Below are positions 4,700 to 63,800 of a DNA stretch of 64,000 nucleotides, one piece after another. The stretch is from Amoebophrya sp. A120. Taxonomy: Eukaryota > Protista > Dinoflagellata. The notes below the pieces were generated by a model. It had not been told where the DNA came from and made no database searches. It saw only the letters and a program-made list of their open reading frames with translations. Each line of letters starts with the position of its first letter. The stretch's first letter is position 1. The stretch spans positions 654,116-718,115 of the forward strand of contig CAJINV010000014.1 of NCBI GenBank assembly GCA_905178155.1, given 5' to 3'. The position numbers and the translations under genes were made by a program.

Positions 4700-7600
4700 T
4701 TCCGTTGTATGCATCTTGCGGAGTGAACGCGTTTCAATTGCAAATTCATTCGATATGCTACTTTTGCATTTTTTCGTGCATACTGACTTTCGTGCTGCAG
4801 ATCTTGGATCACTTCCTCCTCAATGTCGGCTCCCAGTTCGATCGCCCGCGCAGCCGCGTGTCGAGGGGCGCTTGCTCCCAATCGTCCGCGGTTGGGCTTC
4901 TGCTCCTGATTTTCATCCTGCAACCCAGAAGTAGTTGTCCTCGTCTTCACTGGTGCGCCCTCTTGTAGAGATGCTGCATCATGCTCGTCTACAAGAACTT
5001 GTCGCGCACCAGTACTTCTACCCAGTGAGGATACAGCCGGCGGCGCAGAAGCGGAGGACGATGATCCAGAAGTGGGGGCGGTCGTCTTTCTACTTGCAAC
5101 AGTAGAACTCCTACTCGTGGTACTCCCGCCGCCACGTCGACCTCCCGCCGCGGACGACCCAGCTGCACCAGCAGAAGTACTTGAGGTTTTCTTTGCGCTG
5201 TCCAAATGCAGGAAAAACACGTCCAGCAGGCGCACGTGGGCCCCCATGAAAACCACGTTCTCGATCACACTCGTCAACTTGGGAGGGGGACGAGGACGAC
5301 GACCTTGTTGCGCAGCACCACGAGCAGAGGACGAACTACGGGCACAATCTGGAAGATCTCGTCCGAACAAGTTCTCATCTTCTACCTCGCCTTCTTGTTC
5401 TATGCGGTCGTTGTGCTGCTTCATCAGCATATGGAGTTCCAGCAGCGCCGTCAGCACGACCTTGCAACCGAAAGAGTAGGAGATCAGGGAGAACTTCTTG
5501 CTCCGGGATGATGTTGTAACGAGAGCGAGCGCTGCGTTCTTAGTACTTCTACCGTTGTTGTTGGCACTACGTCCACCATTTATTTCCTCTCCCGCTTCAA
5601 GTAGACCACCACGGTGCCCACCAGGAGAAGGAGATGAATGTGAGTCAGTGTGGTCAAACTCATCTTCGTCGGCTGGTGCACCTTCCAGATTTATTTTCGT
5701 CCGATCCGTTTGACGTTGTCTTTCCGTCTGCCTCGTCGACGCCGATCCTCCCGCAAGAAGATGATCCTCCATTTCGTGATCTGCTTGGGCTTGTGCGACG
5801 GTCATCTGGAAGAGAAACCTCCCGAGCTCGATATGGCGTTCTCAACTGTTACATTCTCAACTGTTACATGGGTTTGTGATGCAAGAATGGCAAAAGTGAA
5901 AGGGGTCAGCTTGCGCGTCTTGCATGACAGATCTAGCAAAGATCTTCGGCCTGTTTGGCTCTTCGCGAATTTGTCATGCGAAGCAGCTTGATCGTGTCGA
6001 TTCTGATTATGATTTTGCATTACAAATCATGTAACAGTTGAGAATGTAACATTTGAGAACGCCATACTCGACCCCGACCTGTTTGAACCGGTGAATCGAG
6101 ATCTGTTCGACGTTATCCAGTGCAAAAGTATCGCACTCGTAGTAAAAATCGCAGCTATGCATTACAAATCTAGTTGGTTAGGTAAATCCGCATTACAAAT
6201 TCAATTTGTAATGCTGAGCCAATTTGCATTGCGAGTTATACTAGTGCGATGCTTTTGCAGTACATAGACGTCGTTCAGCATCTCCTGCACCCGCTGCACC
6301 CCCAGGTACGCCAAATTTGGCGGATTCAGCAAGGAAGTGAGCACCTGCAGGTAGAAAAACCGATTGCTAATCGCGTAGAAGTCTTCGGACCGATACTCGA
6401 GCTCCTGGTGCATGCGGTACATCTGTTGCGTTTCGTACCGGAGAAGCAAAATGCTGTCTGGACAAGAATTATCTCCGTTATGATACTGTTGAACTGTAGT
6501 GGCAGATGAATTCCGGACTGTGTGTTCTCGATCTCGTCTTCCACTTTTTACAAATGCCAACCCCTTCGTAAAGGTGTCGTAGTGTTCGTGTCTCGTTTGG
6601 ATCAGGCCGCCCGGTACGCAAACGAAGAAGTGGCGCTGCGGTCGTTTGCCGCTCATATTAGAGGACATACTAGATGACCACGGCTGCACGATCGTGTTCA
6701 TCTTTCTCGTCGAGATATAACTGCCGCGCTGCTCCTGCTGTCGCTGTGAAGATGATCGCAAGGCATGTTCATCTTTTGATGCGCTCTTCCGCTCTTGAAG
6801 ATGACTATGTTCTTGTGCTGGGTTGGTGTCCTCGTGCTCATGAACTACAACGGTCTTGTCGTCCCCACTAGTGCCGATAGTGACACCGTATCTTTCATCA
6901 TCCTCATCAAGACCCCCACCGATGAGACCACCTCCACCTACGACATAATCGCCCCCAAAACTGCTGCCCTTCGGACAAGAGCTGCGCATCATCTGCACAA
7001 TATCCAAGGCGATTTCCCGCACCTCGCCCCAGCGGATGGTCAGAGACTGGCTCGCCTGGTTGTAATTCATGAGCCCATACAGCACAAACAGCACCACATA
7101 CAGCTCGCCACTGCCGACAAAGTCCAGCAACTTCTCAACGCGCAGCGCTCTGGCCGTGTTGCACAAAACTGTTTTGAACAGAAACCGCACGGGGACCGCG
7201 AAGAGGTAATGAAACAGGTAGCTCTGCAATTTATTCGTCGTTTGCAGCATCAGGTTAGTCCCGGGGGGTAAGGCCTGCGCAACATCGGAAACCGTGCTTG
7301 CAATCTTGTTGGTAGTGGTACTTGCAGCGGCCCCCCCAAGATCAGTCGCAGAGGTAGATGCGAGTTCGTACCAGGCATGGTCTTTGCAAATCACGTTTTC
7401 CAACACCAAATGCAGCATCTGTGCCGTCCCGGCCACGGACGTCGCCAGGGCGAACCCGTATCAAATGTAAAAATGTCTGGGTCTGGAAGAGTGGGACTTG
7501 TAATGCTGTCTGCGGATTCTAAAAGTATCTGTGTTGCGTGAGCAGTAAGAGGAGTCAGTTCTTGGCACGCGGAGAGGGCATTTGTCGTGCGTAATTAGCA

Positions 7601-10600
7601 TCAAGAAGCTCTCAAAAAATCTGTGATGCTAGCACCAGCATCACAGACCTGATGGGTCATGCAAAATGTGCATGACAAGCCCCGACTCTTCAAGACCCAG
7701 ACATATTTGCAGTTCATAACCCGGCGAAGAGACCGATGCCCACGGTGATTGCGTAGTACTTCCACGGCTTCGTGTATGACAGGAAAAAAGTGTTACAGTT
7801 ACACATTGTGTTGCAAGACCGGCAACGCAGACAACCTTTCTCATGCAGGAAATGCTTGGGAGCCTCGTTTCCTTCCTGTTTTCCCGTATGATCTTCGCAT
7901 TACAAGTTTTCTCTGCCACACAGAGAAAATTTGTGATGCAGAAACTCAAACAAATGTGTAACTGTATACACTTTTTTCTCGTCATATCGTGTCCAGCGTC
8001 GCGAGCCGCTCGGGCTTCAACACAGAGAATGCGCTTGAAGATTCCGGGAGCTGAATCAACGAGGTCGGGTCGAAATACAACTTCACCTGGTCGCGGAGAG
8101 TAAGGTAGTGCAAGTTGTCCTGGGCGGCATCTACAACTTCGGGAGGACCTGGCGTTCCTTCGTGTTCCGCGGCGGCCGTGTTGATGTGATGATCCTCCTC
8201 CTCGTCACCGGCAGAGGAACCAGGAGAAGAAGCGCCTCCGAAGAACCTAGCAGTACTGCCAGCCTCGTCATCCTTATTTCGCAGTGCTGCTGGTGGTGGT
8301 TTCGAGCCCAACCGAACCGACTTCGTCTTGAACAGCGTGGACAGGGAAGCGGAGGGGAAATAATTCTCGAAAACTGTCCTGTCAGAAACATCTTCCCTAT
8401 GGCGCTCCTCCACAACATCACCGATTGTCGCCACCAGGTCCCTCAAATCGTCTCCGGTGATAGAATGAAAGTCGGAAAAACTCGTGGGCGGATTTCGATT
8501 TTCAGCGGCAGCGTTAGCATCTCCTCGCAGCTGCGATAATAAACTAAAGAGCAAACTCAACGTCCCCGCCATCCCCTCGAAGTCGACAAGTTTTGTTCCG
8601 GCGACAGAAGTAGAGATGGTGGGACTCGACGACACTTTGATCAATTTCTTGGGTCCACTACGTCGGGAATTGCTCCGGCTTCTTCGGGTTCCGCCAGCGA
8701 GAGCGAGCTGCAAAATCGCGGCGAGAGAGAGGAGCACGAGGGCGGCGGGGGTTGTTGCTTGAAAAGCAGCTTCTCTGTGCTGGTCCTCGACCACTAAGTT
8801 TCTTGAATTCGAAGACACGTCGCTGTCCTTTTCTTCAACACCAACTGTGGGACGAGGATGACCTTGACCAGCATTAGGCTGCTCCTGCAGCTCACCGGAC
8901 GATGTCGCACTCGCTTTTTCAACATCACCGCGGCCTCCTTTATCAGCCACGTTCTTGTACAAGAACACTGTCGTCAAAGTATCCGAATACGCCTCCATGA
9001 GACTTACCAACCTCTGCGCACAACTCGCCGACGTAAAAGGCAACAGGAGCAGCCCGGGATTTGCCTGCAATGCGGCCGGGGTATTGGCGATCTTCCGGAG
9101 CACTGCCAGGCCAGGATCATCGTCGGCGAGGACGTGATCAACATCTTGGAACAATCCCCGACCGGGAGCTGTGCTTCTTGGGAGCAGCTCCAGGGCCATC
9201 TTCCTAGTAGACGAGGACGCTTTGTTCGCATCTGTATTGTCCGTTCGTAAGTGAAGTTCTTGCCCTGCTCGCCGTTCACTATGAACATGGTCCTGCCCTT
9301 GCTCGGATAGAAGTAGTTCCTGTCCCACTTGCTCCGGCTCGTCCAATTCCAAACCCAGGAACAGACTTCTGCACAGCAAACCCAAACTCTTCCTACTTTC
9401 CACTGGCAGATCGGACTCGTGCGCCACGTTCCGCAAAAATTTTTCGACCGCACTCGCAAAAACGAACTTCGCAAAAACGACGCGAAGGTGGTAGGACAGG
9501 AGCGGGGAAGAAATGGTGCGACCTTGGGCTTGCAGGGGCGGAAAGGTACTATTTTTTCTACCGTTCTTGTAGAACAAAGAACCTCCAAGCGATTTTTCCA
9601 CAAGCGCGTCCCGCTTTTTCCGAATCACCTTGACGGCTTCTGGCCCGCCGGTCACCGTGTTATCCCCCTCCCCGCCCGTGCCGGAGCCGAGGACAAATTC
9701 CTCGCCGCAGACCAGACACGCCTGAAAATCTTCGATGCAGGAGAGACACAGAAGAGAGGGGGAGAAGCTGCTGCCTTGCGCGTCCTTTTCCTTACCAGCA
9801 CGACCAGCACACGCAGCCACCACGCCAGGATGAAATATTTCTCCTTCGCAATTCGCACAGCGAAAAGGTGCTTTGTTTCTGCTACCGCTGCGGCCTCTCG
9901 ACGAGGAAGCTGTGGATGTTGCACGATAAAAATACCTTCGTGCGAGTTCCTGCCTGTGTTCATCGCAACACGCGTGCATCGTTAAACTCTCCACATTCAA
10001 CCGGTCCCAGTCCTGCCACGCTGTGAGAAGGTCTTGGGGTATAGGTGTTACAACCGAGTGTGCTAGCGCGGTCGCTTCTTCTAGCGCGGAGGTCCTCTGA
10101 TGCTCCTTATAGAAGACTGCGTTTACTTCATTTCCCATAACTACATCATCCCGCGACCACGCGCGTTCTTCTGCAGACGCCCTGTAGAAGTCCATCTTCA
10201 CGGGAGCTCCTCCTGCTGCACTACTGGAACTAGAAATCAAGCCGCCTCCCGCCCGCAGCCTTTTCCGCCCGTCGCCCTCTTTCTCCCGCGCCTTCAATTC
10301 CCGATGGTAGGAAAACTTCTCCGGGGGCACAAAGGTCTCCGGCCGTACGTGCGTCACGTGCAGCACTGCTTTCCCGACTTTCTTTTGCACGTTGAACGCG
10401 GAATACAGGGGAATCTCCACATTGGGAAGGTCGAAAGCTCGGCTGAGCAGCTTCGATATTTTGTCTTCTACTTGATGTCTTCGGGCCTGGTGGTGCTCGT
10501 CGTGTTCAGCAGCTGCAGTTTTTATGATCTCGTCTGCGGCCGCCGACGATGAGGATGCTGTTGCTGCCGCAGCAGCAGTCTCCATAATTTGGATTTCATC

Positions 10601-13600
10601 TCCGCAATACAGAAGTTGCGACCAGAGACTCTCCAACTCTTCCAGCTGGCGTTCTTGTTCGTCCCGGTGCCCGGTAGTGATCATAGCCCCTGCCTTGTCC
10701 TGTCGTGTTTGACTTTGCTCTACTGGCGCTCTTCGTTCACGTTCTCCTCGTTGTCGCGTCGGAAGGGTCGTGTTCTGCAGCTTTCGTGTTGGCAGTTGCT
10801 GCAAGTGCAACGTCAAAACACAGTCTGCCAAGAACTCATCGACGTCCAAAAAGCCGAAAGCGATCTCCGCGGGCTCTCCGATAATCATTTTGTCGTGGTA
10901 AACGGACACCCTCACCTTGTAACAGGAAGAGTCGCTACTCCTCGTTCCACGAAGAGGACTCAGCAGGTGGTCGTGACCATCGCCGAAAGAACCGCCTCCT
11001 GCTTGTCCTCGGAGAAAAAACGTGGAGCGGCAGTGCTTAAATTGCAACACCAGGTCGCTCTCCTGCGTGAACCACTTGCGGTACAGCAATTTCGCGAAAA
11101 ACCCCTCGTGCGAGCTGCGCGTGACCTGTAGTATCAAATGCAAAAATGTCTGGGTCTGGAAGGATGCGAACTTGTGATGCTGGATTTGGATGCTATAAAA
11201 ATCTGTATTGCATGAACAGCAAAAGCGGTCCAGTTTTTGCCCCGGCGAGAGGGCATTTCTCATGCGGCATAGGCATCAGAAAGCCCTCACAAAATCTGTC
11301 TCTGTGATGCTAGGGCATCCATCACAGACGTCAGGAGTCATCGTCATGCAACATATGCATGACAAACCTGGCAACATTCCAGACCCAGATATTTTTGCAT
11401 TTGATATGTAGTGTAGACTCTTTTTGGCCCTCGTTCAGCTCGGTGATCGCTTTTTTTTTGTCCTTCCCGAACCCGAGCCCCGTAGCGAAAACCTGCTTGA
11501 CTTCGAAGGCAGTGGAGAGCTCGGTAAAAATGTCGTACGCGTTCACGTATCAAATGCAAATATGTCTGGATCTGAAAAAGTGCAACGTTTGTCATGCACG
11601 TTTTGCATGACGCGTGAGGTCTGTGATGCATGTCCTAGCATCCCAGATTCTGTGAGATCTTTACCATGCCGCCCCCGCATGAGAAACTGCCTCTCGGCCT
11701 TCTCAAAAGTGAACAGCTGTATTGCTAATCATGCAACGCAGATTTTCGTATGATTCAGATTTAGCATGACAAGTTGTACTCTTCCAGACCCAGACATATT
11801 TGCAATGCATATCACGGTCGCGCGGTTCAGCAAACTATCCGTGCCGTACGACTGGTTCGCGGAGAGAAACTGGCTATCCTGTGCAAAAGTATCGTTCTCG
11901 TACTAATCGAAGATATGCATGACAAATCCAACTTTCTACCTGAAATAGCATGACAAATTGCATTTTTGTTCTTGAGAAAATTTGTAATGCAATTTATACT
12001 AGTACGATAATTTTGCAGTGCATACTGGTCGAGCCGCAGCAATTCGGTGGAGGCCCGGTGTGTACACAGTGGCGTGGTGAAGGACTGCAGACTCGAGGTG
12101 GGCAGGTGCTGGTTGCTTGCAGCTCCAACTACTACGCCACCAGTTACCGTCCTTGCGCTGGTGGTGCCTCCAGCGGGAGGAGCTCCTGTAGTTGCTGCTC
12201 CGGAACTCATATCCTGTGCAAAAGCATCGCACTCGTAGTAATCGCAGTCATGCATTACAAATCTCCATCCGCATCCCAAGGTAGAACAGCATGACAAATT
12301 GCATTTGTCATGCTAAGCCAATTTGTATTGCAATTCATACTAATACGATACTTTTGCATATGCATAACTCACTAGAGACACGAAGCAGAACGGGCGCAGT
12401 GTGTTTTTCAGCTGCATCTCCGTGGTGTACATCCGTTCAAACTGCTTCTCGGCCGTGTAAACCGCATGGAGTTTATGGAATACAATCATGATATCAGTGG
12501 TCCCCACCTCGGTCGTTCAGGAATTCCAAAGTTGTATTGCACAAAACTAAAAGGAACTACTTACATAGAGAGAATCATATCAACCACTGCTGCACTGCTG
12601 GCAAAACAAGCGCCAGCTGGGCAAGATGAGCCGCACTGCTTGCAGCTTCGACAAGGATGACAAGAGGAAGTTGGCACTTCCACTTCTCGAGAAGGCTTTG
12701 CCTTATTTGTGCGATGGTCATGGTGCTGCTCCTGTATCATGACAAACTCAAACTTCGATCTCTGTGCAGAGGCGGGGCACCAAATTCATCAAAGATTGCA
12801 ATTTGCGTATGGCTGCTCTGCAATGAAGACCGCAGGGAAAAGTCTTTGGAGAAGAGAAGGCGCAGCAGGTGTATTTCTACGAGAGGAACCTCCGGCAGCA
12901 GATGAAGCTGAGCTCGCATTTGTGGGGGGGAAAACCAAATTCCCAAAACCGCGGCCATCCTGTTGTTCGTTTTCTTCATCGTCCTCTTGGATCGGAATTT
13001 CGGAAATACGCTGAGTATTTGAGGTAGATTCGTCGCCCTCGTAGAAGTCGCTTCCCTCTTCGCCATTCACGTCAACATTTGCCGTGTTCGTTCCGCCTTG
13101 TTGTTTCTTCTTTTTACCGCTATAATTTCTTGCGCTCCTACTTCTTCTCCTGTGTTCCTTTTCATCCGCTTCCTCCTGCCAGCTCGCCTCCGCCCGCCGG
13201 TGGCGGACTTCCTTCAGCTCCACGCGCAACTGCCTCACGTCTAGCAACTGGCGTATCCTCCTGCCAACCAGACGCTTCAACGCTTTGATTCGCACAGTTC
13301 TTTTTGTCATTTCCCGGCTGGAAGTCGAAGTTCTACTTGTGCTCGTGCGGCGTACTTCAGAAAAAGCACTTGTTCTTTCATCTGTGCTGCTGAAGAACTC
13401 CCAGGACAGCAACAGTTTCCCTACCTCCAACCCTTCGACCGGGTCAATGATGGGCAACGTGCCGTAGAAATTGTTCAACGACGTTCTCGTAGTTCTTTCC
13501 TCTTGATCTTCTACCCTGTTCATCCCGCCGAAGAACGTGTTCCTCCCGCGGCTCCCGCCGAAAAGCGGGACGATGCAGCTGCCGACTTCCTTTACCTCCG

Positions 13601-16029: not shown

Positions 16030-17220
16030 TTACGCCGCGCGCCGGCTGGCCACGAACTTGACGATTCCCGCCACAGCCAGCACGATGAACACGCCGCAGG
16101 AGATCCTATTAAGCGAAAATGTTTGTTCGAATCTTATAGCGTATAAAATCTTATCAAAATGTGATGATCCACCACGCATCGTAACAAGTCGACACCTGAA
16201 GAACCTGATATTACCCCGAAACAGAAACACATCATGACAAAAAAGAAAAAACAGCTGTACGTCATACCACCAGAACCAGCTGTTAAAGAACAGGGCCCGC
16301 TCCACCGCCGGCTTCACATGGGTGCCGTAGTCCTCGTGGTGCTCCTTACCCTTGGCTTCGTCGGGGTAGGGTCCTATCCAGGAAAAAAAGTGTGTAAGTG
16401 TAACTTTGTAGGAAGAACAGCATCGCAAAGTCGCTTTGCATTACAGGGAAAACTTGTCATGCGCAGCTAGTACGTGGAAACACATATTACGAAAGTAGCC
16501 TATGACGCAGATCCAGCATGACAAGTGTAGCAGTTTTGCATTTTCTCCATCACAGACTTGTTACACTCACATTGTTTTTTTCTGGCATAGGTCCCTCCTT
16601 GTGCTCTGTACCCCAGTCCGCCTCGTACCCCGCCTTGTCGACTTCCGTAGCCTGGTTTATTGCGTTTGTTTATGTTTTTGATACAGTTACAGTTTCAGTT
16701 ATGAATAGGTACAGTGCAACATGAAGAGCTGCTATTTCACATGATGATAACAACTAATACAGGCAGCACTTTTCATTTAGTGTTCCCTTCATCATGTTAG
16801 CCACGTGATTCTTTTCACTGCCGTATCTGCTGCAACAGCTTCTGCGTACATAGCTAATACTAAAGCCAAAGGCTATTTTCATTCTAGTACCGCTTTCGGC
16901 GGCGCCGCCGGATCCTGCTTGGTCTTTTTCACCACGAGGAGGTTGGCCAAAGTGTTCGTCGAATCCGCCTTGGACTCCAGAAATTCCCCGAGTTTGTGCA
17001 AGGACTTCTGGAAATTTATTTCCGAGGATGCGGAGGCCGCCGATTTATTATTTGCCGCATTTTTCAGTTTTTTCGTTTCCTGCAGCTCCACAAGAGCCCC
17101 CTTCTTGTTCTGCGTCTTTACCGCATCGACGCCCAGCGCGAGGCTGGTGGTCACGCAGGCGAGCAAAGTACTAGCGACAGACGAGCGACGGGCGAAAACG
17201 AAAGAGGACATCTTGGTCAA
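16030..17220 (-). CDS. Small secreted/type-I membrane protein
   Basis: Signal-like N-terminus (STLLACVTTSLALGVDA); exon ATEVDKAGYEADWGTEHKE/GPYPDEAKG joined across an element; C-terminal hydrophobic CGVFIVLAVAGIVKFVASRRAA. Confidence 0.6.
16375..16589. mobile_element. Introner family E
   Basis: TSD GGTCC, frame restored. Confidence 0.9.
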
Positions 17221-27033: not shown

Positions 27034-27983
27034 CTATTTTATAAAAGTAGCATTCATATTATCAAACACAGAACTAGCAAGTTTTTCTGAAAAAAATACA
27101 ACTCCTGGCCCGTGCTTGAAGGAAACGGCCTGCGCTATCCTGAGTAAAAACGTCCCCACTCCAGAGTTGTCATGCAAATGTGCAATGACAGGAACATTTG
27201 TAATGCACAGCTCCATGGGAGGAATTTCTCGTGGTGTTTTGGAAAAATTTGTAATGCTGTAGTAAGCAGAATGTGAAAATGGCTTTCTCATGCGGCTTCT
27301 CTTGCCAATTAGCACTACTACACTGCAGAGGAAAGCTTGTCATGCACAGCTTCCAAAACTTGGAGATTTGTGTTGCTAGATTCCACCCAACTTGACTATG
27401 GGGTGGGGACGTTTTTGCTTAGGATATGCGCTCTGTCATCCTGGACGATGTCCTGGACGATTTGCTGTTTTTGTTTCTGCTCCACCTGCTGCCGCGCAGC
27501 GGCCGATGAAGCAGCAGCTGCAACTTGAAGGGTCGACGTTGCAGCTGGTGCGCCCGCTTCTACGTGCTGGTCCACAACTACGTCTTCTTGAAATGCTGAT
27601 GCTGCGTCTCCAGGAGAGGCAACATGATTCTCGAAATCTTCTTCCATGATCTTATTTACAGGAACAACAACTTCTTCTTGCAGGAACTTCTGGGCTGCAA
27701 CTGTCCTTCTTTTACTGTGAAGAGCAGCATGCTGACCCCCGGCACCGCCTCCACCCGTAGTTGTCATGCTGGTGATGGCAATCTTCCGCCTCTTGGTCGC
27801 ACTTTTTCCTTCGCGCTTCTCCTTGTTGCGGGTTTTCTGTGCCGTGAAAGACAGGGCGTTCGCGAAAATTGTGCTGTTGTCAAGGTCTTGGCCGTTGATA
27901 TTAATACAACTACTTCCTAGAAATAGAAAGCGACAGTAGGAAGAACAGCAGGCTGAAAAAGACAATACCAAGAAGGTCAACAT
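27034..27983 (-). CDS. Signal-peptide-bearing exons, probable N-terminus of the Cys-rich surface protein
   Basis: MLTFLVLSFSACCSSYCRFLFLG...; QDDRA/QAVSFKHGPG joined across the 27136 element. Confidence 0.5.
27136..27426. mobile_element. Introner family C
   Basis: TSD TGCGC, frame restored. Confidence 0.9.
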
Positions 27984-48412: not shown

Positions 48413-48543
48413 TTGAGACGACCACCACGGAAGTTATGGTGACTGCACCATACTGCTAATCCACACTGCAATGAAAACATTTAACATCTTGTTGATGAGA
48501 TTAACGTTAAACAACATCTTTGAAAAAAATACGAGGAGTTCAC

Positions 48544-51500
48544 TCATGCGACAAAAAACAATCGTCGCACCCAAGCAGTCTTTGGAAGTGTATCTTCCCC
48601 TCGGACTGAAGTACAGCACACATTTTTGAGGAAACCAAGCGATTTTCTCATAAAGTACTCGTGGTCTTTGTTCTTTCGGTAGTCCTCGGGATTGTCGTGA
48701 TACACACTTTCGGCTCCGTATCGTGTGCTGCCATACTTTACCACCTGCTCAGAAATCCACAACTTCAGATGTGGATTCTACACGCTTTAGACAAAAACGT
48801 CCCATGAAACTACACTCTTGACTCTTTCGTTCCTCCATAACATTCCAGATGAATACCAACTAATACGTAAGACTATTTGTTCACAAATTCACGCCACCAA
48901 CCGCTGCGGTTACCTTGGTCGCCTCCCACGCGTTTCCCTTGGTCGCCTCCCACCCGTCTCCAAACGCGTTTCCCGAGGCGAATAGGGTCTCCCCAACGCC
49001 GGTTTGCAGCTGCACGAAACTCCGATTCCGTTTGAAGGCGACGCGGTCGTCAATGTTTCTGATGTGGTTCAACCGCCATTGGCTCTGTTTGGCAAACAGC
49101 GTCTGCTGCAGCTCTTCCACTTTTTTCTCGTACTGCAAAAACTCCGCGTTTTTCTTCTGGTGCACCTCCTGCAAGTTGCGCAACTGTTCGAACATCTGTT
49201 GCTTCGCGTCGGTCCTGCTGCTCGCGAGGTCCTGCAACTGCACAAATTTCATCTCCGTCTGCTTCCAGTTTTGCGGTTGGTGGTTCGATGTCCCATTACC
49301 AACGCCCCCCTTTGGTGCAGTGCTCGTCTTCATCCCGTGGTCGCCGAGCAGTATCAAATAATGCAAACAAGTATGTCAGAGTCCTCTGGAAGAAAATGTC
49401 CTCGTCATGCATGGTTCTCAAAAGACAAAAGAAACTGTCACGCGTGTTTGTTTCTCTAGACCGCCGTTTGTTTCGCTTCCTACAGAAATGCGACGCTGCA
49501 GGCGGTTAGTGCTTGACGTAGTCGCAGAAAAAAAGACACTTGTCATGCGTGCTGGCGAAGAAATGCATGGGGGCTGCAACTCGGCATGCAATTGAAAATT
49601 TTCCAGACCCCGACATAATAGTATCTGTGATGCATATCATGCGCATTAGAACTCGTGTTCGTCGTGAACTCTTCGATTTGGCGGAGGATCACTTCGCGCT
49701 GGCACATCAACGCCCTCTCTTCCTTATCCTGTGCAAAAGTATCGCACTCGTACTAATTGCAAATATGCATGACAAATGTTTTCCCTAGGGCAAAACAGCA
49801 TTACAAATTCCCCTCTCCTTCTTGCCAAAATCTGTGATGCAATTCATACTAGTACGATACTTTTGCAATGCATATTCCTGCATCACAAGCTCCATTTTCT
49901 TGCCGAACTTCAGCCTCTCCAGCGTCATCGTCTTCTGCTTGTCTGCCCACGCCGCTTCGAGCAACTTCAGTTTTTCTATGGCCGCGCCAGGTTGAGAATT
50001 TCCTCAAAACTTGTCATGCTTATATGTGGTAAGTTCACCCATATCACAAAAAACATAACTGTGTAGTTAGATACCATGCAAATAAGCACGAGCTTACAAA
50101 TCTTACTCAAGCATCTTGTGGCTGTGGCTCAACAAAAAAAGTTCTCGATCGGCATGACAGGGCGCACTATTATACTCACAGATATATCGCGCTCAGGGGC
50201 AATCGAAAATAGTAGATGCGTCCACTGGATCAGGGAAAAAAAGAAGTGTCGTCATGATGCGCTACTTCTTTTAGTTCCTTGGCGAATCCAAATGGAATCC
50301 AATCTATCACACCGTGAAAATACTTAAATCGTCCCCATGTTGTCGATTTCCAACCTGACGCTACTTCCATATTTTCCCGCTCCTTCGTGATGTCCTGTTG
50401 CAACTTTTCCCGCACCATAATACCGTCGCACAGGCTATCCCGTGCAAAAACGTCTACGGCGCGGCCCCATACCTGTCTTGCTAAGCTAGAAGAGAGCCGA
50501 AAAAATTATGATGCGCGGCCCGATGAGGAGTATTCTCTCTTCACGCTATCTGGGAACTTGTCATGCTGGAACCTGGATGAGGTACCCGCAACTTAACCAT
50601 AGAAGTGCGAAGATGCTGCTGTGTTAGCAGCTTCTAAACCGGATTTTTACACTTCGAGCCCGAAGCTGTCATGCGCAGCAGCCGAAATTTGTAGTGCATT
50701 TGCGCAGCACGACATTTGTTCCCATCTTGACTTTGGGGTGCTGACGCTGACGTCGTTTTTTGCACAGGATACAGGCCGGACTCCAGGGAGATTTTGCGCC
50801 GTTCATCCAAGTCCTTTTCTGATTCGAGACTCTGCTTCTTGTAGAGAAACTCTTCCGTCTGCTTGGTTTCGGAGATCTCCGCGTCAGGCTCGGTCTTCTG
50901 CTTCCACCTGTAGTTGATCCTCGAAATTGTTATACAACGTTCTGTTACACGCGTAGTTTTTGATGTCGAGGGACTACTTCCAGTACGTCTTGTTCTTTAT
51001 TGATTTTTTTCTTATGTCTTTTATTAACACCTGACTAGTTCTGGTACGTCTTTTTCTTTGTTTCTGAGTTTGAACAGCTTCGATGGTGCTACTACGAACA
51101 TAATGCTTGTTCCGTAAACGTAGTACTTACGTGGTACTGGTACTGCCAACACAATATTAATTCGCAATCATTTCTATACTTCTCCGAGCTCCGCTGCAAA
51201 TTCAAGCAGTCCGCTATCAACTGCAAACGTGTGGTCTGGGTCTGAAAGGTTGCAAGGCTTGTCATGCTTGTCTGATACGACTCTGAGCCACTGAGTACTT
51301 ACGCAGAGATGCTCATGCATGTCATGCAAATAAATCGCAGTCTGCCATGCTCCGGAAGATCCCAATTTTCTTCATGTTCTCGTTGTTCACAATCACACCA
51401 GACTACCAGCTACAACTTTCCTGACCCACACATGCTTGCGGTTGATATCCCTTTCCAAATTGCGACACTCCGCCTGGACTTTTTCGATCTCCATCGCAGT

Positions 51501-53497
51501 GTATGGCTTGCAAAAACAAAAATACCGTAGAGTCGTGACAGCACCAGACCACGTCGAGCAAGAGCGAAGCGGAAAAGAATAGAGGTATATGGCTCCGCTG
51601 CAGTTACACCTCCTAGCCGAAACTACTACAAGCGGTGCCATCGCTTCAGGAGCGCGGCCCTAGGTGTAGCCTGTAGTTGATCTGCAAATCGCGGTCGCGA
51701 TCGTCACCGTGATCTGTGGATACGACCGAGCATTTTGAATTTACTAAACTACGACTGATTTAAGAATGTATCTGCTGCTCCACGTGCTCTACGGTACTTT
51801 TCGTCCAACAGGATAGATTTCGATCGTACTCCGCGCGCTTGATCGCCCGCTCCCGAGTCACGTCGCTCAGTATGGATTGCAAAAATGTCTGGGTCTGGAA
51901 GATTGTCAGGTTTGTCATGCAGGTTTTCCATAACTCATGAGGTCTGGTATGTAGGACATAGCATGACAGATTCTGCGAAGCCTTTCCAATGCCTATCCTG
52001 CGTGAGAAACTGCCTCTCGATTAGGTCAAAAGTGCACAACCTTTGGCAATCATGCAACACAGCTTTTTGCCTGATTCAGATTTAGCATGACAAGTTGCAT
52101 TCTTCCAGACCCAGACATTTTTACATTTGATACTCAGCTCTTTTTTCTTATTCAGATTCGTCGTCGTTGGAGCGGGTTCTAGTTCTTGCTTGTTGGAGGT
52201 TCCACCTTGGAGGTGTTGCGCAGCAGTAGAACCAGCTCCGGCTCCTGCTTTTCCATCGCGGTCCGCTGGAGGTTCTTGGATTTTTATATTTCCACTTCCT
52301 ACGATCACGCCAGCCGCTCCTGCTCCGTCGGACGATGATGTGCCTGCTCCAGGATGAAGAGTATGCTGTGCAAAAGTATCGTACTCGTATTGCGGTCATG
52401 CATTAGCATTACAAATCTTTTTCTTGAGGTAGATCAGCATTACAAATTTTCTCTCTCATGCTGGGGAAATTTGTAATGCATTTATACGAGTACGATATTA
52501 CCTTTGCAATGCATAAGGAGTGCCCATGTGTGGTCCGACCGTTCGCATTTTCGCCGCAATCGCCTCCAGTTCCTTTATCCAAGAAGAAAACGCTGCTAAT
52601 GTAAATCTGTGATGCGCAACATGCAAGATGATTCCGCCTGTCATGCTTGGCATGCGTCGCAGGGTCCATTAAAGGTCTTTTCACGTACTTACTATCTGCG
52701 CATGACAGGTTTTTGCTGTCATGCCAGACAAATTTGCTGTAATGCTGTTCCACCAAAAAAGTTACACCTACAATGTTTTTTTCTTGGATATCCTTCTTCC
52801 TTTCCGCAATAAACAAGTTGATTTGATCGCGTTTTTTGTGCAGCGCATTGACGCGCTCATAGCACCATCTCTGCCGCGCGGCCTGGCGTCGCGGACTGCT
52901 GGTACTACTCCCGGACGCGGTAGAAGAAATGGGGCCGAGGGACTTGCTAGTTATAGAAACAACTGCAGAAGTGCCTGCTTTTGAAGTCGAACCTTGTTCA
53001 CCACCACGTTGGAGAAGATCGACTACATTACTTTGCTTGTTTCCAGTTGGAACAACAGCAGCTCCCCCGGCTACACGTCGACCCTCAACCGCGGCTCTTG
53101 AAGATACTTCTACGCCAGTTCTCGCCGACGGATTAAACTTATTCTCACCTCGGCTCCGGCAGGTACTGGTACTACGTTGTGCACCACGGTTCGTCTGTTT
53201 GTTTGCCAGCACGGATTCTCTGACGAGTTTTTCCGGAGTTTTGCTTCGCCGCGCCGCGAGGGGGCCGACGGTTCCGGGCGATTTTGAAGCGGGTAATTGT
53301 ACAACTCCACCTGGTGGCTTGTAGTTTTTCGTCTTCTGGTGCTGCGAACCAATGGGCGTGGAAGCAGGTAGTTTATTCACCGAGGTCGTCGTTTCCTGGC
53401 CTTGCGTACCAATTACATCGCGAGACGTTGGAGTTGCTCCCGCGGCACCAGACTCGGGACTGCTGCCAGTATTGTTCTTGTTCACCGGGACACCCAT
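48544..53497 (-). CDS. Uncharacterised coiled-coil protein with low-complexity N-terminus
   Basis: In-frame joins across elements: AERKK/ELEAIAAKM, KKEL/SDVTRERAIK, SLESG/LCDGIMVREKLQ, LVMQ/EERALMCQ. Some junctions unresolved; may be more than one gene. Confidence 0.6.
49352..49636. mobile_element. Degenerate introner family A
   Basis: tatcaaat...ctggaag / ttccagaccccgaca...gcata; ends uncertain. Confidence 0.5.
49725..49874. mobile_element. Introner family B
   Basis: TSD TTCCT, frame restored. Confidence 0.9.
50436..50771. mobile_element. Introner family C
   Basis: TSD CAGGC, frame restored. Confidence 0.85.
51215..51447. mobile_element. Introner family A, diverged
   Basis: TIR tatcaactgcaa / ttgcggttgata; partial TSD TCC. 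Confidence 0.75.
51871..52132. mobile_element. Introner family A (reverse complement of the 61968 copy)
   Basis: TSD CTCAG, frame restored. Confidence 0.9.
52362..52515. mobile_element. Introner family B
   Basis: TSD AAGAG/AGGAG, frame restored. Confidence 0.85.
52576..52790. mobile_element. Introner family E
   Basis: TSD TCCTT, frame restored. Confidence 0.88.
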
Positions 53498-53934: not shown

Positions 53935-54040
53935 AGATAACAGACTTAGAACGTCGATCGTGATCGACATGGTGCGTTTCTTCGCACTTCTGTGCTACCA
54001 CAGATAACAGACTTAGAACGTCGATCGTGATCGACATGGT
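53935..54040. repeat. Exact 39-bp direct repeat containing a small hairpin
   Basis: AGATAACAGACTTAGAACGTCGATCGTGATCGACATGGT at 53935-53973 and 54002-54040. Confidence 0.85.
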
Positions 54041-54146
54041 CCGTCCTTGGGTTGAAGCATTAACCCCCCAGGCGGATGCAGCTATCTTCGTGCTTCTGCT
54101 TGTTGCTCTGTCTTGTGCTAATGCGGTTTGTTGTTCTGCGCACTAC

Positions 54147-57100
54147 TTACACTTCGGCGACAAAATCAATGGCGTTTCGATTGTACCACTCTGCGAGCAG
54201 ATCAGCCGGAATCCACTCCTTCGTCTTGTCACGGTTCTCAAATAGTTTGAGATCTTTGTCGGCCTCCGCGAGCGTCATTACGACCAGCTTCAACGGGTCA
54301 GAGACAGAGTCCTCTTGTACAAAAGATTGAGACCACGCCGACTGTTTCCGTTCCTCTGATGAGTCGAAAAGCTGCTGGCTTCCTGCTACAGCTTCCCTTG
54401 CGGTTTTTTCTTGATGCGCCGAAAACGATGACTCCTCGCCCAAACCGGAAAATGGGCAACCTGCGGCGCTGCTGGTGCTGGTTCCGCCACTGCTGGACAT
54501 CGGTGCTTTCTTACTGTTCGCCACCAAGCGAATCGCAGCCCGGACGGCGTTTCGAATCTGGTCCACGTCTTTTTCCTCGACTGCCAAGATGGCGCGAATG
54601 TTCACCCGGTCAGCCCACTTTTCGCATCGCATCATCAGGTGCATCTCCGGGCGCGAAAAGCGGCGCCACCAGCCCCTCCAGGAGTCGAGGGCAAACCGTT
54701 TTCGGAATTGTTTTTGCTGCCAGTGTGCCTGTCCCGTTACGTCCACCACATCCCCCAAGACCAACACTGGTAGGGTGCCCGGCCCCATGTAGGTCCGCAG
54801 CTTCTCGGTGGCGTCCGCTATGCTGTGTAAAAACGTAGGTATGACTCTCCACCCCCAGTGTCGAATTCGATTTGTCATGCGAATTTGCATAATACCCAGA
54901 AAAAAATCTACCGCGGAATGCATCTCCCGCGCGGCTCTTTTCAGCATGGATCTGCGATCGTGGCGAACGTGCAGAGGGAAGTGGGAGGCTAGGTCTTGAT
55001 CTTCCAGCCGCAGATATTTATATTTATTTTCATGCTGGGTATGGGCTGTGAAAGACGTTTTTCCTCATGATATCGGCGCTTTCCTCCCTGGTCAACCACC
55101 AGAATCGACCAGCGTAGGCATGGGGCTTGAGACCCGCGTGTCTGAGAGTGCACAACCCGACCCCCCGACACCCTTCTACCTCATATGTGGTCACGTTGGA
55201 CGCAAATACCGAAGTCGAATAGAAGAAACGGAAGACATTCTCTGCGCCACTTATGTTATTTGAGTACATAAAGTCATCCCTTTATTTCTTGGCGCTCTGC
55301 ATCTTTAATTTTACAGCATGATAAGTTTCGAAACCCCCGACGATGCTTCTAGTGGAGGCAGCAACGCGCTCGAGTTCTTGTCCTTGTTGTGCACTCGGAT
55401 AGCGTTCTTGTTTGCGTACTCTTTCGCCATATCCCACAGACGCACGCTTTCGTCTCCGCTGCATTCATGCATCCGAAAGGACACGGGGGCAGACACTGCA
55501 ACGAACTTCCGCTGGAGCTCAGCGTAATTCGTTTTTTCATCATTGCGGAGGGACGTCGTGGTCGACTGGATGTCGGTCCCCACCGTTTCATTCGCCATCT
55601 GTGCCCGCTCCCCTCCGGTTAACTCGATCCCCTTCCGGGTCAGGAAATTCACGCCAGCCAGCTGCGCGTTCGTGAAGAGAATCGCCGAGACCACATGGTA
55701 AATCGCCACACCGGTGAGCGACCAGGGTGTTGGAAAACCCAGGTCATCGCTTGGAGGTCTCGCCAGCTCCAGTGCGCGTTGGGAAACTGAGGGCGAATGG
55801 CAGAGGAAGAGCTGACCGATGTACGCGTTCAATAAGACAGTGGCTCTACGCACGAAAGGGCCAAGCCATTGCTCAAAGATATGGCTATCGTCCGACCACG
55901 ATCTTCCGCAATGCCGCGTTTTTATTTGGTCGGGCGAAGCTGTGGAGTTGTCGTGGTGGAACCAATATGCCGCGCAAAAGTATCGCACTCGTGCAATTTT
56001 GTGCAGTCAGTCTGGCGTGATAAGTCTGATTATTTCATATTAGGTAACTCGTCAGCACTTGCTGCAAACGCCACCTCTAAACCTCCAGATGCATCTAAGG
56101 AGCCCAAGCCCAACATACATAAAGAACTACAACTCTACTGCAGTGTAAATTTTAGCTTTACTTCTAAAAGTGTAAGTGTCGCGATACTTTTACCGAGCAT
56201 AGCCAAGACTGCAGCGAGGAGTTCTCCATCGCGTAATACCTCTCCTTCTCATACGGCGGATCGTACTTGTATTCATGTCGTGGACGTTCCCAGATCAGGC
56301 CATTGAAGGAAGACCACGAAGCGGGAGCCTTTGCGAGCACATCTTTGGCGAATGGCGTGCGCTTGATCGCTCGCAAGTACTTTCTTGCCACTATCTGCGC
56401 CTCCTGCTCGTCCACGGCGACAAAAAACTGCTCTCCCTGTATGGAAGTGTCTGGTTTGAAATGGGCGACACAGTAAACAATTTGCAATGCACAAAATTAT
56501 GCGGGGCACGGGCACACAGTAGAAAGGGTGCCTTTCTTGAAGAGCACGAGCAGGCAAATCAGGAAGATTCTGCGATAAGCCTGTTTGAGGTTGTGTGATG
56601 ATGTTGCAGATAGAGCTGCTACAAGAGTACGACAAAAAAAGCATTTTTTGCCCAAACAGCAAGCATCAAACAGCAACACTCCTTTTCCTTTTTTTGCACT
56701 TCGCTACTGGCAAATAAATCTTCATTTGTCATCATGCGCCATCAGCTAGAGCTTGCGGGTTCTTCGACTACTGGTCGTGTCGCTACAATATCAAATACTA
56801 TACGCTGCAAACTCTTTCAACCTTGTCGATTTCGAACCCGACACTGCCATACCCTTTCCGATTCTGTTAATCAGAGCATCCCGATCCCGATCGTAGAGGC
56901 CCGCGGAGAGGCACCTCGGTCGCAGGTCAGGCTGGTCGCCGCGAAGAACTGCGAGTGAGGCAGAGCCTGCGCCGTTATGAGAGTGCATAACCAACCCTTC
57001 CCCTCTTTTGAAGGCCATGATCAGGAGCAACACAAGCAACGGCAGATGAAATTTGGGCTCCGTGTAAAAAATCGTCTGCACATCACCAATTGCAGTAGTA

Positions 57101-60883: not shown

Positions 60884-63800
60884 TTATTTGATTTCTTGTA
60901 AATAGCCCCACAATTGGTTCAGCCTCTGTTTTGCTTCCTCGTAGTCCGTCAGCTCGTTTCTGCAGATTTCCCGTGCCAGCTGAATCAACTCAAACATCTG
61001 TTTGGCGTCGGCGGATTTGTTTCGGTCCGGGTGGGTGTACCGTGCCAGGGTGCGGTAACGCGTGTTCAGCAGCTGCTCGTCAAATTGCTGGGGCAGACCC
61101 AGCGTCACGATGGCTAGCTTCCGTAGTTTCTTGCACAAAATCAGGGTGGATTCCTCGCGCCAACATTCGTAGGTGTAGGCCGCCACCCCCGAGCCGACGA
61201 AACAGCCCAGGATCGCGCACAGCGCCGGGCTCCACCCCAGACTGGCCCCGAGAATACACGCGGCCGCGCCCATGCCATTGCTGTACCCGCTGAACACTGC
61301 GTCCGCGAGAAACTGCTCCTGCGTAAGGTGCTTCTGGGTGTACATCAAATACCGAAGCGCAATCCTATCCTGTGCAGAAGTATCGCACTTGTATTGCAAT
61401 CATGCAGTTTCTTCTTAAAGGTAAATCAGTACCAGCATTTACAAATTTTATTTCTCATGCTGAGGAGATTTCTAATGCATTCATACGAGTACGATACTTT
61501 TGCAGTTGATAAATCCACCCGGAGCCCAGAATGCCCAGCAGCGCCGGCGTCGGGTTCAGGGCAAGGTAGTTAGCAGCAAACTGCATGGTGGGCTGATATA
61601 AAATTCATTTCGCATGTAGATGAAAGTGGTAGGCGTAGTACTTCTAGCGTGGTCCTTCAGATGTTGTTGGGTCAAGATGCAGAAGGCGATTCAGATTTCA
61701 ACTACTTGGCGAGCCGCAGGAAAAGTATGAGGAAGATTTTTACAAGTATTAACAACGACCGCAAGTCGGAAATGGATTTTCAACTACGAGGAGTACTATC
61801 TCACTCTTCTGAATCAAAGAAACACACCCCGTTTTTCTTGTACTTATGAATGTATAGAGACAGAGATTATTTAGTTCTTTTTCTTACCATCGAGGCACAT
61901 CCTTGCGCGGCATTAATCAACTGTAGGACACTCCAGTAGCTAGCGCCAACACAGGCTCCCTTCCCCGTATCAAATGTAAAAGTGTCTGGGTCTGGAAGAA
62001 TGCAACTTGTCATGCTAAATCTGAAGCATTGAAAAATCTGTGTTGCATGATTACCAAAAGTGGTCCAGTTTTGACCAAGTCGGGAGGGAGTTTCTCATGC
62101 AGGGTAGGCATGAGAGAGATCGCGCAGAATCTGTCATGCTAGGTCCTGCATTCCAGACCTCGTGTGTCATGGAAAAGCTGCATGACAAATCTGACAATCT
62201 TCCAGACCCAGACATTTTTACAATCCATACCCCGCGTCGACAGCCAGCTCCTTGCCGATGTCGGACATTTTGGTGTCTTCCTTGGCCAGCCACAGGGACC
62301 GGACCAAACCCAGCACGGACTGCACCCCTATGGACACAGACATCGACATGGCCAGACTCGTGGGCGCGAGCATGTAATCCTTTCCGGCCACCGCAGAGGA
62401 AGCATTCGCGAAGCTGGGGCCCGCCGCAGGGTGCTGCCGAATCACGTGCAGGCCGCCACGCATCTGAGTTTATTTTTGCTAGTTGTTCGGTATAGTTACT
62501 TGGAACTGCGTATGCCTACTATTAATCAGCTTTAGAAAAAATTTTCCATGGTGGTCTGTCACGCAGATGGATCACAACAACTACAACATCCAACGGGCCC
62601 TGCTCTATTAAATGAACGAATAGAAGCGTAGGAGTAGTACCGGGTCCACTTTGAAGGTGTAGTGTTTTAGCGGCAAGAAATTCTCTCCGATCGCGTTGAT
62701 ACCACCTGCCAGGGACGAGGAGGCCCCTCCTGCGGACGCCGCGCTGGTCGCGCCCACAGAAGTTGCACCAGTGCTTGAGGCCGCAACCGCGTGGGCAACG
62801 GCCTGGGATGAAGCTGCGCCCGCTCCTCCAGTGACACCTCCACTCCCCGCGGCCACCAACGCAGCGTTGACTTGCCCGGCGTTGTTTGCAATGAACAAAT
62901 TGCCCCCGGCGGTGGAGGCAGTGGAGACGTATCCTGTGCAAAAACGTCGGGGGCCCCAAACCGCATGTTAATTGGAGGTCATGCAAATCTGCATGCAGCT
63001 GCCCCAGAAGTCTCTCATCATGATTCCCAATGAGCAGCACTTTCCATATGACGTGTTGGACCAGCCTTCCGAAAAAATCATGCTCTTGCTAGCAGGACCA
63101 CAACATGGCCAATTACAATTTCAATTCGTCGTGATGCGGCTATTTATAGCCAAGCACGACCACAGAGACAGACACATACACACTGCATGTCATCAAAAGC
63201 ATGCGGAGTCGACAATGTGCTTCTCGAACAAGAAGATCTGTCTAACCAGATTTCTGATCTCGCCTCCGGAAAGGGGTGAACGACGTTTTTACATAGAATA
63301 AGATGACGCGCTGGATGAGCCAGGTGTCCGCGACGTTTTTGATGGCGTTGGTGGTACTGGAGCCGGTCGCGCCGAGAACGTAGGCGGGCGTGATCACGTT
63401 GGGCGTGGCCCGGTAGTGCGTTATAACGCGCTCAGGTGTTACAATCTCAAACGTTACAATAGAGTTTGGAAATCTGTGATCCAAAAAGTGCATGACCTAG
63501 CCTTCATCTCCCACAGGTCTGCGCATGACAAGTTCCGGAGTCCCAAACCGCACTAGAATCATCATCTGGCGAGATTTGTATTGCAGAAAGTGGACCAAGT
63601 CTGTGTCTGTCATGCTCATCATGCAACACAAAATCCAGACTCTATTGCCACATTGAAGATTGCAACATCTGAGCAAGCCATATGCGTGATCCGCGTCTCC
63701 TGTTCTATGGGCTGCTTCATCTCGGCCTCCCAACGGTTCGACAGGTTGTTCTGCTCCAGGTTGGGGTGGTGCGACAGGGCGGCCCGGTTGATCCGTGTTC

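Follow-up and report, generated by a model that had tools for sequence, protein, structure and literature searches.

The closest described elements are the introners of Amoebophrya A120. Approximately ~30,000 repeated non-canonical introns have been reported for this genome, and its introners carry inverted repeats made of TAT, seven variable bases and a run of A, are flanked by direct repeats of 3-5 nt, measure ~240 nt and lie in co-oriented genes (Farhat et al. 2021, PMC7789003). The accessible text of that paper reports no transposase in A120, argues against general mobilization by transposases, and proposes a novel recognition factor, U1 snRNA not having been found. A120 introner family 38 has a 5-bp target-site duplication (TSD), TA/TA termini and homology to an integrase-like ORF (Gozashti et al. 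2025, PMC12130899). Figures aside, the accessible text of these two papers treats only termini and direct repeats; an internal motif, a rule for spacing and an analysis by strand are absent from it.

We analyzed a window of 64 kb of the A120 genome and annotated 61 elements (~14.5 kb) with TAT...ATA ends and 5-bp TSDs. The TSD was exact in 39/61 elements and had one mismatch in 17/61. The profile of 78 ends was TAT-N7-AAAA (TAT, seven variable bases and an A run), with A as the second base at 78/78 ends, which had been selected as TAT-like. Thirty-nine elements, holding 101 matches to the motif described below, were called blind to it. The other 22 were added through terminal-profile and TSD scans and inspection of regions with leftover motif matches, and are not motif-blind because such regions guided part of the calling. 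An automatic motif-blind caller recovered 49/61 elements and made zero calls on the reversed window. The pattern used to locate family A copies in the assembly loci itself includes the motif.

The elements have the inverted repeats described for A120 introners, a TSD within the published range of direct repeats, and a similar length and placement in co-oriented genes (PMC7789003). Family lengths (109, 150, 209, 236, 263, 279, 305 and 312-325) agree with those in the published A120 rows (107, 149, 208-209, 234, 256-261, 273-278, 305 and 310-321). The elements resemble non-autonomous, MITE-like DNA transposons: short, non-coding, present in many copies, and bounded by terminal inverted repeats (TIRs) and a TSD of fixed length. 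Excising an element with 5 bp reopened long minus-strand reading frames, leaving an open frame of at least 300 nt on both flanks at 35/61 junctions, compared with 3-11 at other offsets. A host frame of 2029 codons (4684..12516, minus strand) opens on removing 8 elements with one TSD copy each, and another of 1367 codons (18901..26177, minus strand) is restored across 11 internal elements, a 12th lying at its 3' edge. The elements are thus repeated (13 multi-copy families) and inserted in coding exons, as introners are, and their splicing from the transcript is predicted from the frame restoration. Judged by sequence, they match the published Amoebophrya A120 introners.

The 8-base word GCATNACA had 145 exact matches on the two strands of the window, compared with 9.4 +/- 3.1 (maximum 19) in 100 dinucleotide shuffles. 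The N position was G in 74 matches, T in 36, C in 34 and A in 1. The elements contained 137/145 matches, and the 49.5 kb outside them contained 8 (0.16/kb, the chance level). Within elements, the base 3' of the word was A or G in 133/137 copies, the next A or G in 126/137 and the next T in 99/137, which extends the consensus to GCAT[GTC]ACA[AG][AG]T. A preliminary description had reported the motif as recurrent within families of differing TIRs, often trailed by AA/AAT and rare outside elements, and all three observations were borne out. When 30 or 40 nt were masked at each end, 135 (12.4/kb) or 115 (11.9/kb) matches remained, whereas shuffled element interiors gave a mean of 3.6 and a maximum of 9. 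Since matches persist after masking, the enrichment is independent of the TIR. The word is present in 13/13 multi-copy families and in a 14th family that was held out (384 further copies, one public assembly). Where elements are long, the sites keep to the terminal regions and are not spread into the cargo.

Site numbers agreed with the examples of the preliminary description in all eight elements that it had singled out. Among these, the family A element 19363..19614 contains six sites (19396-, 19443+, 19482+, 19502+, 19535+, 19566+; the sign gives the strand) and the family D element 5832..6066 four (5875-, 5922+, 5972-, 6017+). The others are 22571..22727 of family B (22616+, 22648+), 30382..30666 of family C (30460+, 30509+, 30542+, 30627+), 16375..16589 of family E (16438+, 16455-, 16516+), 21418..21743 of family F (21461-, 21570+, the sole N=A copy in the window), 20923..21170 of family G (21020+, 21121+) and 45644..45794 of family J, a remote relative of B (45686+, 45753-). 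Further family A elements are 7459..7718 (7499-, 7622-, 7638+, 7670+), 11132..11406 (11173-, 11303-, 11357+), 11548..11811 (11590-, 11622-, 11764+), 23424..23685 (23466-, 23498-, 23638+), 24476..24737 (24516-, 24656+, 24688+), 35335..35589 with six sites (35376-, 35407-, 35440-, 35460-, 35502-, 35549+), 41379..41644 (41472+, 41597+), 41752..42031 (41798-, 41849+, 41888+, 41946+, 41976+), 51871..52132 (51913-, 51961+, 52085+) and 61968..62229 (62008-, 62132-, 62180+). Family B is also found at 854..1010 with an exact 5-bp TSD (889+, 924-, 955-), 6114..6266 (6159+, 6190+, 6207-), 11875..12024 (11917+, 11948+, 11983-), 12210..12366 (12252+, 12289+, 12306-), 31480..31629 (31522+, 31553+, 31570-, 31588-), 33905..34055 (33944+, 33979-, 34010-), 40034..40182 (40076+, 40142-), 49725..49874 (49767+, 49798+, 49833-) and 52362..52515 (52406+, 52437+, 52472-). 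Family C occupies 21825..22104 (21903+, 21953+, 21986+, 22065+), 23892..24163 (23924-, 23992-, 24025-, 24074-), 27136..27426 (27168-, 27199-, 27250-, 27338-) and 34115..34395 (34193+, 34325+, 34356+). The remaining elements of this kind belong to family D (22241..22469, 22419+; the older 41008..41264, 41160-), family E (7775..7986, 7897+ and 7932-; 20073..20296, 20222+ and 20256+; 52576..52790, 52608-, 52639-, 52700+, 52717- and 52738-), family F (39673..39977, 39765+, 39833-, 39896+ and 39927+), family F2 (24800..25127, ~325 bp, 24855- and 24941-) and family K, a remote relative of D and G (63422..63682, 63523+ and 63608-), and one is related to G (42082..42341, 42132-, 42185+ and 42247-).

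The motif is eroded in old copies. Those of family A lie at 1482..1723 (1505-, 1660+), 43641..43926 (43865+) and 51215..51447 (51260-, 51320-), and an old C-related element at 50436..50771 (50559-, 50667-). Other old elements with sites are 18912..19187 (19017+), which has lost its TSD (4 mismatches) and has uncertain boundaries, 49410..49636 (exact TSD; 49541- and 49626-, the latter overlapping the terminus), 49977..50371 (395 bp; 50012-, 50152+) and 54819..55072 (54873-). No exact site is present in 13/61 elements of the window, several of which lie inside restored frames. These are a family B copy that has lost every exact site (61366..61511), an old B-like element within a restored 540-codon frame (32696..32854), an old B-related element (42407..42592), an old C-related element (62930..63300), an old G-related element (45853..46071), an old TAT...ATA element (30758..30917), and old elements at 34452..34656 (within a restored 397-codon frame), 43076..43244, 43290..43567, and, with degraded TSDs, 44022..44293 and 44410..44574. 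The remaining two, the old element 55966..56201 and an old, expanded copy of family H with intact termini (56440..56851), lie within a restored 402-codon frame.

The spacing of the sites was also constrained. A same-direction pair 30-33 bp apart was present in 12/13 family consensuses, compared with a mean of 2.7 and a maximum of 7 in 5000 trials of random placement, and the mode of the pair distance was 31-32 bp. At 15 consensus ends, the first outward site lay 33-34 (4 ends), 41-46 (8) or 53-56 (3) bp from the end. The cluster means were 10.4 apart, and a period of 10.5 gave R = 0.79 (p=0.0002), although the phasing p-values are optimistic because the families, forming ~six groups, are non-independent. 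The helical repeat is 10.5 in B-DNA and 11 in A-form RNA; the cluster steps and the pair mode are closer to the former. First inward sites were weakly phased (p=0.10), as were all sites taken together (R ~0.3, p 0.03-0.04), and within the 64-kb window alone p<0.05 was reached in only 3/10 tests. Families D, K and G are related, and their homologous first sites lie 44, 53-54 and 34 bp, respectively, from both ends, with a non-motif identity of 0.47-0.62. In the held-out family H (10 copies), 14/14 site-bearing ends have an outward site at 42-45. Such multiple short conserved sites by both ends, in a constrained arrangement, are characteristic of subterminal repeats.

The motif was better conserved than the neighboring spacers, and its N position was free: in families 0-10, the majority base had a frequency of 0.91-0.98 in the columns of the motif and of 0.63-0.83 at N, and the remaining interior columns gave 0.69-0.87. 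In trees of 8/8 families, the motif/interior substitution ratio was 0.00-0.30 on internal branches and 0.32-0.62 on terminal branches, and the inner TIR showed the same pattern of strong constraint on internal and relaxed constraint on terminal branches. In 23 old copies, divergence was 13.2% in motif columns and 15.2% in the inner TIR (p=0.42), while other invariant interior columns had diverged by 21.0% (p=0.0002). The motif therefore erodes like the inner TIR after insertion, and some host-level constraint may exist, as it has diverged less than the other invariant columns. The preliminary description had called the families otherwise dissimilar; this needs correction, since several of them could be aligned over their full length in profile searches, which place the families in ~six alignable groups. 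Alignable descent with neutral decay of the motif would have spoken against a functional site, and only the first part was found, in part. On these alignments, motif sharing is partly a matter of descent, the families being remote relatives, yet not of neutral descent, because motif evolution is non-neutral along element lineages.

It is very improbable that the motif is a relic without function, left from the internal repeats of a single ancestral element, or that mutation bias produced it as a by-product. Remote homology of the families, with the common TAT-N7-AAAA end and 5-bp TSD, is in keeping with such a relic, but the motif columns, with one free position inside them, stand far above the adjoining spacers in conservation, and spacer lengths are kept where spacer sequence is down to ~50% identity. 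The comparison of internal and terminal branches largely refuted this reading. An RNA signal, that is, a branch point or splicing-factor site placed both ways so that the element splices in either orientation, is also improbable, if less extremely so. The branch-point core UNAC is contained in the motif, the elements are intron-like in that their removal restores reading frames, and an outward site is frequently 33-46 nt from an end. Non-canonical introns make up 60-65% of the introns in these genomes (PMC7789003). However, with respect to the inferred gene strand, sense and antisense sites were equally common (385 vs 390) and decayed equally (6.3% vs 6.7%, p=0.67). An exact sense copy was absent from 75/289 elements with an inferred gene strand, and 31/289 had no sense site even with one mismatch allowed. 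The distance of sense sites to the 3' end ranged from ~20 to ~200 nt, as on the antisense strand. A branch point would be expected on the sense strand only, with one site near each 3' end, and neither was observed; a strand-specific splicing factor is likewise disfavored. Between the two terminal sites, the N base agreed in 5/11 cases (0.46 expected); with no covariation, the two sites do not resemble a paired stem. Non-element DNA, the expected home of canonical introns, was not enriched.

Binding of the DNA by a host chromatin or transcription factor, which would flag the element for removal during transcription or shield it from silencing, is possible but doubtful. It is equally doubtful that elements with phased arrays spread by being tolerated in genes, with redundancy concealing that individual sites have been lost. 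A host factor of this kind would also predict strand symmetry and B-DNA phasing, and the lower divergence of the motif than of other invariant columns in old copies fits it. The novel recognition factor proposed for A120 is in line with it (PMC7789003), and there is a resemblance between the G variant and the ApiAP2 site TGCATGCA, a weak lead only (PMC6631176). Against it stand the elements within restored frames that have no exact site, the constraint, which is strong along internal branches and loosens on terminal ones, the chance-level frequency in non-element DNA of the window, where its other targets would be expected, and phasing relative to the element end, which is the cleavage point. 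We consider it likely that the conserved GCAT[GTC]ACA[AG][AG]T is bound on double-stranded DNA by the complex that mobilizes the TAT...ATA elements. Such a site is favored over an RNA splicing signal because there is no strand bias and old copies erode like the inner TIR. The preliminary description had proposed a binding site for one trans-acting factor, be it a transposase, a chromatin protein or a splicing factor. A binding site for one such factor is supported by survival of TIR masking, conservation above the flanks, the free N and the fixed spacings; no binding protein for the motif was found in this analysis. Among the candidate factors, the mobility side is favored and the strand-specific splicing factor is not.

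For about two thirds of this mobilization hypothesis, the binder would be a single, shared DDE transposase, probably of integrase-like type, that binds through its DNA-binding domain, and for about one third a host cofactor of the transposase. Binders would be spaced by three helical turns and would occupy a face of the helix that is fixed with respect to the cleaved end, and the bound array would help to pair both ends of an element of 110-330 bp. New copies would be spawned only by copies with intact, in-phase arrays. This requirement would preserve site and spacing while leaving TIR positions 15-30 and the spacers free to diverge between families. Once inserted, an element would have little further need of its sites, and its removal from the transcript would rest chiefly with the termini. 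The movement signal (internal array and inner TIR) would then be separate from the likely removal signal (extreme termini), and the many TIR-defined families may form one mobilization system. A more far-reaching proposal, which we regard as unlikely, is that the helically phased lattice of GCATNACA sites is read, in every introner family with TAT...ATA ends, by a single DNA-binding protein, which licenses mobilization and marks the DNA for U1-independent transcript removal. If true, transposition and non-canonical splicing would be coupled through a common cis-code in a host most of whose introns are non-GT-AG. The phased common site could serve as a well-defined pull-down bait, and the autonomous parent could be recognized as a long TAT...ATA element that carries arrays at its ends.

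No autonomous element was found in the ~0.5 Mb examined. Of 88 ORFs in long elements and at unpaired ends, 72 were scanned against Pfam, and none matched a transposase or integrase, including those of hAT and Ginger. The TA...TA termini are shared with the integrase-related DNA transposons IS3EU/GingerRoot (PMC10045372, PMC6839031, PMC12730594), and families D and H start with TATGG where fungal IS3EU starts with TAYGG; however, the TSD of IS3EU/GingerRoot is usually 6 bp, compared with 5 bp here. A 5-bp TSD also occurs in hAT5, and Ginger2/TDD has one of 4-5 bp (PMC10045372), whereas Ginger termini are TG...CA. In Lemi1/Emigrant, Sleeping Beauty, hAT and CACTA, as described in PMC1636448, several short subterminal sites occur in both orientations, as here, and the protein-DNA complex depends on how many there are and how they are arranged. 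Those arrays are protein-bound; the likeness of the putative sites here is one of sequence. The repeat of Emigrant and of Sleeping Beauty corresponds to one half of the TIR of the same family, whereas here the site is outside the TIR and one site is common to at least 14 families with differing inner TIRs. The sites here also fill the whole short element, with 31-32 bp spacing and ~10.5-bp steps from the end. With no description found in the literature searched, the helically spaced shared array would represent a new variant of subterminal binding arrays.

The 8-base motif GCATNACA, which carries one free base (N), matched exactly at 145 places in the window when both strands were counted, compared with 9.4 ± 3.1 expected from 100 dinucleotide shuffles, and the most frequent 8-mer of the window was GCATGACA. 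All example coordinates of the preliminary description were confirmed on re-check. N was G in 74 matches, T in 36, C in 34 and A in one; the longer form of the site was [TA]GCAT[GTC]ACA[AG][AG]T, and variants such as GCATGAGA and GCAA[CGT]ACA were tolerated. A at N was almost absent from further loci as well (23 of 1502 matches), and this scarcity may be a specificity feature of a candidate binding site. Inside 61 short elements with TAT...ATA ends and a 5-bp target-site duplication (TSD) lay 137 of the 145 matches, and the other 49.5 kb of the window held 8. Two more degenerate elements with uncertain boundaries, at 1205-1396 and about 40610-40770, contained one each of these eight (1312 and 40707). 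The enrichment did not depend on the terminal inverted repeats (TIRs), as about 12 matches per kb persisted after masking 30 or 40 nt at each element end.

Of the elements, 39, with 101 matches, were called by a scan that ignored the motif and looked for TAT...ATA ends next to a 5-bp duplication; the other 22 came from the terminal profile, the TSD and inspection of leftover matches, and hence were not blind to the motif. The TSD was exact in 39 of the 61 elements and had one mismatch in 17. After excision of the element plus 5 bp, 35 of 61 junctions had at least 300 nt of open frame on each side, compared with 3-11 junctions for offsets of 0, 3, 4, 6 and 7. Excision of 8 elements opened a minus-strand frame of 2029 codons, and that of 11 internal elements opened one of 1367 codons on the same strand. 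From this frame restoration we infer that the elements are intron-like insertions in exons that would be removed by splicing. For each of the 36 window elements to which a host strand could be assigned, the host frame was on the minus strand, and strands were never mixed within a locus, as expected of co-oriented gene blocks. A cluster of 37-53-bp inverted repeats at 26592-26853 lacked GCATNACA and was not repeated elsewhere in the window or among the loci; it may be a fold-back element or a regulatory array of another kind.

Metagenome contigs were scanned with the family A end and the motif, giving at least 167 loci, all from one assembly, which merged to about 455 kb and had no non-element DNA in common with the window; since the loci were chosen via the motif, their family A sample is biased. 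A motif-blind caller, which recovered 49 of the 61 window elements and called nothing when the window was reversed, found 384 elements in the loci, with 11.8 motifs per kb inside and 0.97 outside. Once missed and truncated copies were covered, 150 matches were left in 321 kb: 95 were clustered, many in the missed family H, and 55 were isolated, against 35 expected. The 439 elements of up to 460 bp formed 13 multi-copy families and 44 singletons. In viral contigs, the family A pattern matched once, in the region of a phage tail gene where the frequency of the motif was at chance level; this match was dropped, and the family B pattern had 0 matches.

The preliminary description had called the motif-bearing families otherwise dissimilar. 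The motif was indeed present in all 13 multi-copy families (an exact copy was absent from 17 of 44 singletons); the dissimilarity was not complete, as profile searches and consensus alignments gave the groups {A,12}, {B,J}, {E,10}, {C,F,F2}, {D,G,K} and {8}. Non-motif identity within groups was 0.47-0.62, and 0.73 for the A-12 pair. With motif and termini masked, cross-family searches, underpowered because masking fragments the targets, returned only A-12 and D-K matches. The shared end and TSD make one common ancestor for every family plausible.

Alignable groups thus existed, as descent from one element would have it, and neutral decay of the motif was contradicted by column conservation. 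In families 0-10, the majority-base frequency was 0.91-0.98 in motif columns, 0.69-0.87 in other interior columns and 0.63-0.83 in the N column, and motif and flanks gave the same picture within the window alone. These values argue that the motif does not evolve neutrally and make it very improbable that it is a relic. Substitutions were assigned to branch classes on FastTree trees by parsimony in 8 families. The motif/interior substitution ratio ranged from 0.00 to 0.30 for internal branches and from 0.32 to 0.62 for terminal ones, a pattern seen in 8/8 families and likewise at TIR positions 15-30. Private changes in the motif (about 0.03 per site) were of the same order as TSD divergence (0.045 per site pair, an underestimate because the caller favours intact TSDs). 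Of the 44 singletons, 23 could be placed in a family. In these, motif columns differed at 67/507 positions and inner TIR at 77/508 (p = 0.42), compared with 193/917 in other invariant interior columns (p = 0.0002 vs motif); terminal trinucleotides differed at 2/135, in part owing to ascertainment. Old copies therefore retained the motif better than other invariant interior columns and no better than the inner TIR. An old family H copy at 56440-56851 had zero exact sites, yet lay within a restored 402-codon frame. The branch ratios, the decay in old copies and this copy point to a sequence needed for spawning new copies and largely dispensable later. That the motif decayed more slowly than other interior columns leaves room for host-level constraint; that a DNA-bound host factor marks the elements for splicing or silencing seems unlikely.

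A role as an RNA splicing signal would concern the sense strand. Restored frames indicated the gene strand in 202 of 445 elements, a number that rose to 293 once the locus majority was added. Sense and antisense sites were near equal, at 271 vs 292 and 385 vs 390, respectively, and no family had a significant orientation bias; the bias hinted at by family B in the window failed to reach significance in the larger sample (17 vs 29, p = 0.10). An exact sense site was missing in 75 of 289 elements, and in 31 even with one mismatch. Mismatch load was also alike (sense 145/2289, antisense 146/2191, p = 0.67), and pairing of two terminal sites in RNA was rejected, as their N bases did not covary. 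Against these counts, we regard a splicing signal in RNA as improbable.

Spacing was analyzed for sites with at most one mismatch in the 13 family consensuses. A same-direction pair 30-33 bp apart occurred in 12 of 13, and in each of the six groups, while random placement gave a mean of 2.7 and a maximum of 7 (5000 trials). The first outward site at 15 consensus ends lay at 33, 33, 34, 34, 41, 43, 44, 44, 44, 44, 45, 46, 53, 54 and 56 bp, with a best period of 10.7 (R = 0.79 at 10.5, p = 0.0002). Phasing was far weaker for first inward sites (p = 0.10) and for all sites taken together, where R was about 0.3 (p 0.03-0.04). In the window alone, p < 0.05 was reached in 3 of 10 tests; general 10.5-bp phasing of all window sites was weak, and only the 30-33-bp pair and the first outward site held. 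In families D, K and G, the homologous first site lies at 44, 53-54 and 34 bp, respectively, measured from either end; this is the most telling case. In family H, outside the 13, 14 of 20 ends had a site, and the first was outward at 42-45 in 14/14. The helix values of B-DNA and A-form RNA are well established, and the 10.4 steps and 31-32 pairs are a better fit to B-DNA than to an A-form RNA stem. Because the families are related and independent shifts number only about five, helical phasing is well supported, short of proof.

Overall, our analyses favor, with some reserve, the motif as a subterminal and internal candidate binding array for a mobilising complex. The ApiAP2 site TGCATGCA, which agrees with the G variant alone, is a weak lead. 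No transposase or integrase family was found in the 72 scanned of 88 candidate ORFs, and the available part of Farhat et al. (PMC7789003) likewise reports none found in A120. Four candidate autonomous elements (L002:4986-6873, L010:8458-9712, L036:632-1465 and L074:3862-4492; metagenome loci) proved to be family A copies with foreign inserts. Two of the inserts were related (70% identical over 249 bp) and bordered by duplications of 13 and about 21 bp that started at the second base of a motif site; a third terminated in an (ATC)n run fused to a partial site. In the fourth, the duplication stopped just before a variant site. These very few cases may reflect a motif-targeted retroelement or a hotspot of breakage. 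A fifth candidate, L027:505-1608 (1104 bp, new TIR, exact TSD), was rejected for lack of a recognisable ORF; its exact sites were confined to the first 250 bp, beyond which lay purine/pyrimidine-skewed simple repeats, and the element gave no Pfam match.

The seven bases after TAT (end positions 4-10) changed faster than the interior (on family A terminal branches, 23 changes per column against 12). Of 201 family A copies, 178 had unlike bases there at the two ends; heptamers also recurred across families, the same one being common in A and B, which suggests that end segments may be exchanged between elements.

The elements themselves and subterminal arrays are already known. Neither motif nor spacing is described in the available parts of PMC7789003, PMC12130899, PMC9860276 and bioRxiv 2020.10.14.339549, and the PMC7789003 supplement text had 0 motif matches; no description was found in the literature searched, and figures, some supplements, subscription papers and theses, outside its scope, may bear on this. 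A120 introners agree with the window elements in termini, repeats and sizes (PMC7789003, in part), and family lengths in the A120 rows compared of PMC12130899 supplement file 8 agree as well. The TA...TA ends point to IS3EU/GingerRoot-like relatives of integrases; membership is not claimed because the usual TSD there is 6 bp, in contrast to 5 bp here (PMC10045372, PMC12730594 and PMC6839031, portions available). One A120 family, about 810 bp long, has a 5-bp TSD, TA/TA termini and integrase-like homology, according to the accessible part of PMC12130899. The subterminal binding arrays known from Lemi1/Emigrant, Sleeping Beauty, hAT and CACTA elements (PMC1636448, in the part available) provide a model for the motif described here.
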